Shown here: piece by piece, positions 19,172 through 19,460 of the stretch
Layout: each line of letters begins with the position of its first letter
Position numbering within the stretch: the stretch's first letter is position 1
DNA from: Escherichia coli
GTDB taxonomy: Bacteria; Pseudomonadota; Gammaproteobacteria; Enterobacterales; Enterobacteriaceae
Assembly: GCF_022846255.1 (NCBI RefSeq)
Contig: NZ_AP025682.1
Length of the DNA: 64,000 bases
Direction: 5' to 3' (one strand)
Notes under the pieces: generated by a model
What the model was told of the DNA's origin: nothing
Seen by the model: the letters and a program-made list of their open reading frames with translations, nothing else
Databases searched by the model: none
Made by a program: the position numbers and the translations under genes

Positions 19172-19186
19172 TGGTGTCCCCTGCAG
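19172..19186. other. prophage attR core: 15-bp copy of the argW tRNA 3' end
   Basis: TGGTGTCCCCTGCAG is the reverse complement of CTGCAGGGGACACCA, the tRNA-Arg (argW) 3' terminus as recalled. Confidence 0.6.
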
Positions 19187-19259
19187 ACATCTACTTGAGG
19201 CGGCAGGGGATTGATTGGAATGGTGTTTTTTAGATGTGAGAAATATTTTACCCGCTATT

Positions 19260-19460
19260 TTACCCATTGGCGCGGCTTAAGAGCTTATTTTTGAATTCAC
19301 AATGGTCACGATATAACCATCTTGCTCTCCCGTGGATAACTTTGGCTTTTGGCAGGTCGCCGGACTTAATCCGGTCATAGATGAAGGTTTTACCGAAGCC
19401 AGTATCGGCCATGATGAATTTCAAATCAACCAGTGAATCAGGTTGTAGTTCGTGTTGCAT
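19260..19460 (-). CDS. torI: excisionase / TorR inhibitor TorI (AlpA-like)
   Basis: 66-aa ORF matching K-12 CPS-53 TorI as recalled. Confidence 0.8.
   Translation of the reverse strand: MQHELQPDSLVDLKFIMADTGFGKTFIYDRIKSGDLPKAKVIHGRARWLYRDHCEFKNKLLSRANG

Follow-up and report, generated by a model that had tools for sequence, protein, structure and literature searches.

The dsdC–torI intergenic region of an Escherichia coli genome is very probably the attR junction of an argW-integrated lambda/DLP12-type prophage

The KplE1 (CPS-53) prophage of E. coli K-12, inserted between yfdC-argW and dsdC, carries an experimentally dissected integration module. In MG1655 the order is argW-intS...torI-pawZ-dsdC, where pawZ is a 15-nt pseudo-argW annotated at the CPS-53 end. 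The intS gene is expressed from an autoregulated promoter inside attL, and excision requires IntS, IHF and TorI, the last of which has five binding sites on attL (PMC2951348). IntS and TorI both repress the intS promoter, so that the supply of TorI is the main control on excision; the TorI sites have been defined and the IntS arm-type sites share TAAA (PMC2951348). The K-12 element itself is a 10.2-kb, 16-ORF remnant without a repressor (PMC2951348), in which gtr-type genes adjoin intS. In the P22-like podoviruses HK620 and Sf6 (Lederbergvirus) and in the HK97-like siphovirus HK633, int, the attP core and torI are contiguous. VT2phi_272, an Stx2 phage with IntS at argW, is also already on record.

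We analysed a stretch of 64,000 nucleotides from another E. coli genome (contig NZ_AP025682.1, one strand; hereafter the window), in which the region has the opposite orientation to that in MG1655. Our results indicate that positions 19171–19283 are, with high confidence, the attR junction of a ~46.5-kb lambda/DLP12-type prophage (Table 1). The 16-nt att core, ATGGTGTCCCCTGCAG, is the reverse complement of the argW 3′ end. On the argW strand it reads CTGCAGGGGACACCAT, which exactly matches the published 16-nt core of KplE1 (PMC2951348). More specifically, it equals nucleotides 61–75 of tRNA-Arg(CCU), as called by ARAGORN on a contig that overlaps the window, plus one following base, and it also equals the pawZ pseudo-argW of K-12. 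In this strain the direct repeat extends to 17 nt (19170–19186). The initial annotation had recognised the 15-mer TGGTGTCCCCTGCAG at 19172–19186 (+) as the argW 3′ end in reverse complement, lying about 100 bp after the dsdC stop, and had read it as an attR-type junction of a KplE1-type element. Both readings agree with our data: the core begins 98 nt and the 15-mer 99 nt after the end of the dsdC stop codon at 19072, the dsdC–torI intergenic region is identical to that of K-12 at 177 of 187 positions, with two differences between the core and the torI stop (19187–19259), and the primers of a published 135-bp attR substrate that is functional in vitro (PMC3509656) map to 19149–19283. Two direct TTTTACCC repeats in the P arm may be IntS arm sites.

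A 66-aa TorI-like excisionase gene had also been proposed to follow the core. This gene is separated from the core by 73 nt, and its product is identical over 66/66 residues to the Tor inhibition protein of the solved structure PDB 1Z4H; at homologous loci RefSeq annotates it as TorI (WP_001163428.1). As in the KplE1/HK620 module, a winged-helix recombination directionality factor (RDF) gene of the torI type adjoins attR.

Table 1. Coordinates of features at the two ends and in the body of the prophage; positions beyond 64000 are window-equivalent and come from contigs that overlap the window end
Feature	Position	Strand	Remarks
dsdA	15236–16564	-	chromosomal, left of element
dsdX	16582–17919	-	chromosomal, left of element
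dsdC	18137–19072	+	ORF; chromosomal flank on attR side; 311 aa in RefSeq homologous loci
attR bacterial (B-side) arm	19073–19169	.	contiguous with argW/yfdC in 911 empty-site genomes
lambda/DLP12-type prophage body	19171–64000, continues past window	.	tblastn of B7A/PhiR26_1 proteins, megablast
att core	19171–19186	+	second copy at L006 3535–3550, window-equivalent 65654–65669
attR phage-side (P) arm	19187–19283	.	right primer of functional attR fragment ends at 19283
two direct TTTTACCC repeats	19246–19253, 19258–19265		overlap torI 3′ end, in P arm of attR
torI	19260–19460	-	66 aa; RDF (excisionase) and TorR inhibitor
second argW-derived block (argW nt 46–61, T-arm)	19480–19495	-	exact 16-mer TTGCAGGTTCGATTCC
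intrinsic-terminator-like hairpin	19511–19526	-	just upstream of torI transcription unit
114-aa ORF	19585–19929	-	final gene of integration-module segment; homologues in HZ41, HK022, 434 and Stx1a phages
PACE (BTP) efflux transporter	20267–20725	-	Pfam PF05232, chlorhexidine-efflux type; RefSeq
LysR regulator	20829–21713	+	divergent from PACE gene; Pfam PF00126, PF03466; RefSeq
EmrE-like SMR transporter	30182–30568	+	prophage cargo
BD-FAE/alpha-beta-hydrolase esterase	30627–31670	-	prophage cargo
OmpC/NmpC-like porin	34080–35174	-	prophage cargo
small terminase gene (Nu1/nohD-type)	38153–38697	+	1-bp deletion at ~38392
head protease/scaffold gene (lambda C/Nu3-type, S49)	42379–43698	+	CAG>TAG at 43084–43086
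479-aa gene, low GC (33–38%)	62434–63873	+	last before intS, between tail-fibre region and intS
intS	L006 2217–3374 (-), window-equivalent 64336–65493	-	Pfam Arm-DNA-bind_3 and Phage_integrase
predicted TorI pentamers on attL	L006 3441, 3451, 3461, 3504, 3524	one strand	GATCG, GTTCG, GTTCG, GTCCG, GTTCG
tRNA-Arg(CCU) argW	window-equivalent 65655–65729	-	on contigs overlapping the window end

From the junction rightwards the prophage has the composition of a lambdoid genome. Its left part holds torI, two small ORFs and the PACE transporter gene with its divergent LysR regulator, followed by a dATP/dGTP-PPase-DUF551 gene, ea22-like and TraR-like genes, exo-bet-gam, an S24 cI repressor and cro. 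Then come a YdaT-type ‘cII’, O, P, the SMR transporter and the esterase, and after these ybcN-ninE-ybcO-rusA-Q (nin region and Q), the OmpC-like porin and S-R-Rz. The late genes are Nu1-A-W-B-C-D-E-FI-FII-Z-U-V-G-T-H-M-L-K-I-J-lom-stf-tfa, and the right end of the body is made up of ybcY, a tfa fragment and the 479-aa gene. With B7A and PhiR26_1 proteins as tblastn queries, the lambda gene order is collinear from the recombination genes through stf-tfa. The prophage is collinear with and ~95–99% identical to viable lambda/DLP12-type phages; compared to PhiR26_1, the part between 44000 and 62300 shows 93% coverage and 95.7% identity. Regarding the cargo, the PACE/LysR pair also travels with torS-integrated relatives and persists in argW deletion remnants, and a 1183-aa intimin/invasin-like gene adjoins the esterase gene in three relatives. 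The 479-aa protein matched no Pfam or PADLOC family significantly, its sole match being a sub-threshold Ser_hydrolase; the 114-aa ORF had no Pfam or PADLOC match, and for the other small ORFs these searches returned nothing usable. The 479-aa gene looks like a mobile moron, because an identical copy is found behind tfa in a P2-like prophage of TB06052. TB06052 carries only this gene of the element, in that P2-like prophage, and was set aside as evidence on the boundaries.

The initial annotation had described a larger, largely intact lambdoid genome. Size (46.5 kb) and full gene content bear out the first part of this description; ‘intact’ has to be qualified, since two of the essential morphogenesis genes are damaged. 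Specifically, the Nu1 frame shifts after ~79 codons and the nonsense codon in C is codon 236 of 439, while the remaining late genes are full-length as compared to the plaque-forming PhiR26_1 and the B7A prophage. In lambda, Nu1 is needed for packaging and C for head maturation. Because the small terminase gene is frameshifted and the head protease gene C has a premature stop, the prophage is probably virion-defective, without DNA packaging or head maturation.

It could be argued that the prophage is fully functional, i.e. inducible, excising and plaque-forming, and that the apparent lesions in Nu1 and C are either tolerated or due to sequencing errors. Apart from Nu1 and C, the early, lysis, head and tail genes are indeed full-length and 88–100% identical to those of PhiR26_1, and an S24-type cI repressor is present. 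However, both lesions recur base for base in the NCBI draft GCA_005387665.1 and in the Logan assembly of DRR102846, each of which differs from the window by 102 mismatches over 7–10 kb (~1% divergence), although these two may stem from one strain. The same lesions in a ~1% diverged prophage mean that the mutations are inherited and are not assembly errors. Together with the roles of the two genes in lambda, this makes a fully functional prophage very unlikely. As for the virion-defective prophage, the element is probably still excision-competent, because IntS, TorI and both arms are conserved. With a complete gene set in a probably cryptic prophage, prophage-calling tools would likely over-score it as ‘intact’.

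The window holds no tRNA gene and no second copy of the core, even when three mismatches are allowed, and tblastn with B7A and PhiR26_1 proteins, the PhiR26_1 integrase included, detected no integrase within 19171–64000. The lack of a tRNA gene and of a second core fits attL lying outside the window, and it had been predicted that integrase, attL and argW lie past position 64000. It is important to note that the right end was read not from the window but from other assemblies that are identical to it over an overlap of 1.9–2.0 kb, so that there is a small chance of a rearrangement in this genome just past 64000. These contigs were found by exact-protein lookup with the 479-aa protein, the last complete ORF of the window. 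Contig L006 is identical to the window end at 1881 of 1881 positions, and contigs L007 and L010 are 100% identical to it. L006 and L007 run on into a 385-aa IntS, whose gene would start 336 nt past the window end, and then into a second exact copy of the core in the same, direct orientation, located inside tRNA-Arg(CCU). L006 continues through argW, yfdC, mlaA, fadL, yfcZ, fadI and fadJ into the chromosome. Hence, on these contigs, argW, the integrase and the direct repeat of the core are all found where the initial annotation had placed them. The distance from core to core is 46,483 bp. Note that both ends also occur in one sample: SRR19238557 holds L007, with the 100% identical right end, and L024, which has 1 mismatch in 6225 nt against window positions 16769–22993.

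The attL side closely resembles that of K-12. IntS is identical to K-12 IntS at 382 of 385 residues, and the intS–yfdC intergenic region, which comprises the P′ arm, core, argW and flank, at 302 of 311 positions. The intS gene adjoins attL on the same strand as argW and is read away from it, and the 161-nt region upstream of intS is the P′ arm. All five published TorI pentamers (GATCG, GTTCG three times and GTCCG) are present on one strand of attL, in two blocks. Arm-type repeats (GGGTAAAA/TTTTACCC) occur three times in the P′ arm of attL and twice in the P arm of attR. Thus, the predicted TorI and IntS arm-type sites on attL are conserved in sequence.

The two ends can be joined in silico and compared with phages and with unoccupied chromosomes. 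A synthetic attP, in which the core joins the arm from the intS side to that from the torI side, is found as one BLAST piece with 96–98% identity in HZ41, IME10, HK633, HF4s, N7, HK620 and Sf6. The 16-nt ‘attP core’ that the authors of HK620 annotated between int and hkaC (= torI) falls exactly at the reconstructed junction. The corresponding synthetic empty attB (dsdC side, core and argW/yfdC side) exists uninterrupted in 911 of the 5426 complete E. coli genomes, e.g. LF82. In genomes with csc genes in place of dsdC/dsdX, homology to the element begins exactly at 19170. Moreover, in two closed genomes, EC42405 and 2013C-4282, window positions 19170–22212 are fused to the window-equivalent of 65022 onward. 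This junction corresponds to one internal deletion of 42.8 kb that joins the 214-aa dATP/dGTP-pyrophosphohydrolase gene to intS beside argW. At the level of single molecules, these deletion derivatives show that an element bounded by IntS and argW once had a left end of this type.

Regarding occurrence, the attR/torI end (19171–19530) is present in 1403 of the 5426 complete E. coli genomes (26%). The full-length element was found in none of them, and none covers the junction together with the lambda body, or the tail end together with the 479-aa gene. In several genomes the csc sucrose genes replace the dsdC/dsdX side and end exactly at the att core; EC42405, 2013C-4282 and 24A16CRGN010 are of this csc type. 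Beside the csc genes, the argW site is occupied in some by a deletion remnant of 3.7 kb and in others by an IS-rich island of 40 kb that has a different integrase.

An alternative explanation of the left end is a composite locus, in which an old element of KplE1 type has left only the core and torI behind. The lambda-like genome next to them would then be another prophage, in tandem or brought in by recombination, that has an integration system of its own and is not bounded by intS and argW. Some observations fit such a locus: the torI-PACE-LysR end persists at the argW hotspot beside unrelated DNA, for instance the 40-kb IS-rich island of 24A16CRGN010, near-identical lambda-like phages are integrated at torS with lambda-type Exc and Int, and the window has a clear mosaic breakpoint at ~19945. 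However, tblastn with the B7A and PhiR26_1 proteins gave no integrase in 19171–64000, and no second core and no tRNA gene lie there. In three identical contigs IntS, the core and argW come immediately after the last gene of the window, and the deletion derivative of the two closed genomes connects a lambda-side gene directly to intS. The breakpoint itself reflects module exchange in evolution and not two elements today. In view of the tblastn result with the B7A and PhiR26_1 proteins, the single core in the window and the continuity of the contigs into intS-argW, we reject a tandem or composite element and regard it as extremely unlikely. That the 15/16-mer merely resembles a tRNA end by chance, without an integration event, has a negligible probability: the motif is short and shuffles gave 0.53 core matches with three mismatches allowed, but no exact copy arose in 100 dinucleotide-preserving shuffles, both flanks agree with those of the K-12 attR, homology in other genomes begins exactly at 19170, and the empty attB and the free attP, together with the deletion derivatives, refute it.

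With a single prophage bounded by attR and attL, the course of events was most likely the following. IntS-mediated recombination of attP with the 3′ end of argW inserted the prophage, and the core, which is 16 nt long (17 nt in this strain), was thereby doubled. The copy at attL is part of a regenerated intact argW, ~1.65 kb past the window end and beside intS, and the other is left as an orphan ‘pseudo-argW’ downstream of dsdC and beside torI. Since attP lies between the RDF and integrase genes, as in KplE1, HK620 and Sf6, these genes stand at opposite ends of the prophage. Cut off from the early operon, the prophage intS relies on its own promoter within attL (PMC2951348). The torI gene is the outermost one of the leftward early region and lies behind five terminator-like hairpins and the stretch annotated in HK620 as a cII-dependent promoter.

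The surroundings of torI have some peculiar features. Five terminator-like hairpins on the minus strand (19511–20194) separate the PACE gene, a 55-aa ORF, the 114-aa ORF and torI, and 19000–22000 contains 9 terminator-like sites versus 2.5 expected. This suggests that the small genes near torI are each transcribed separately or need antitermination. A second block derived from argW, corresponding to the T-arm, lies 20 nt 5′ of the torI ATG and contains a GTTCG pentamer of TorI type. The 16-mer is kept exactly in K-12, HK633, EC42405 and LR-28. The number of such matches expected by chance anywhere in the window is ~0.002 (60 16-mers × 128,000 positions / 4^16). The T-arm block has the same orientation as the core and is collinear with it; in the tRNA they directly abut, whereas here they are 293 bp apart, and these 293 bp are exactly torI plus the P arm. 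The block also lies inside the cII-dependent ‘phage integration’ promoter/cII site annotated by the authors of HK620, whose features 1664–1702 and 1689–1701 map to window positions 19467–19505 and 19492–19504. That the torI cassette sits within an older and longer block of tRNA identity is a rather unlikely idea. According to one reading, an ancestral attP would have contained ~31 nt of argW, into which the RDF gene and the arm sites were inserted later. According to a second reading, the T-arm copy would be a regulatory site that controls torI. The attR-torI-PACE-LysR end is kept as a remnant in several unrelated argW islands, possibly because torI or the PACE cargo is under selection.

Based on the results obtained, the left boundary of the prophage is fixed to the base (19170/19171) and the right boundary is predicted at ~65669. 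To the left of ~19945 the element consists of the argW-type module (114-aa ORF, torI and attR), and to the right of this breakpoint it shares 99.0% identity with lambda-like prophages that reside at torS. The breakpoint against the torS relatives implies that the torI-attP-intS unit was acquired by module exchange, i.e. a virion genome of DLP12/lambda type has exchanged its integration module for one of the argW type. Such a swap is the usual lambdoid mosaicism.

The relation to known systems depends on the part of the element. PhiR26_1 and B7A (an ETEC prophage at the torS site) have collinear early, nin, Q, porin, lysis, head and tail genes with ~88–100% protein identity. They differ from the window element, in which Nu1 and C carry lesions, and their integration modules are other ones; B7A and two further relatives have lambda-type Exc and Int next to torS. 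In HK620, Sf6 and HK633 the situation is reversed: the module is ~97% identical to the attP reconstructed from both prophage ends, whereas the virion, replication and immunity genes are different, the window element having head and tail genes of lambda/DLP12 type. Homology of HK620 and Sf6 to the window ends ~55 nt past torI, and HK633 is a siphovirus that already carries the IntS/TorI module. With KplE1 the window element shares the insertion site between yfdC-argW and dsdC, the 16-nt core, a 100% identical TorI, the same TorI pentamers and arm repeats, and the location of int and RDF genes at opposite ends of the prophage. In contrast to the K-12 remnant, it is 46.5 kb long and has cI/cro, replication and lysis genes and a complete lambda-type set of virion genes. 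Its cargo (PACE/LysR, SMR, esterase, porin and the 479-aa gene) is also different, and its direct repeat is 17 nt instead of 16 nt. The junction, core, RDF and integrase are thus already known: they belong to the KplE1/HK620 module, which has been dissected experimentally, and stand at its canonical site. Virion genes of DLP12 type with an IntS/TorI module, PACE/LysR cargo and two lesions are an unremarkable new combination.
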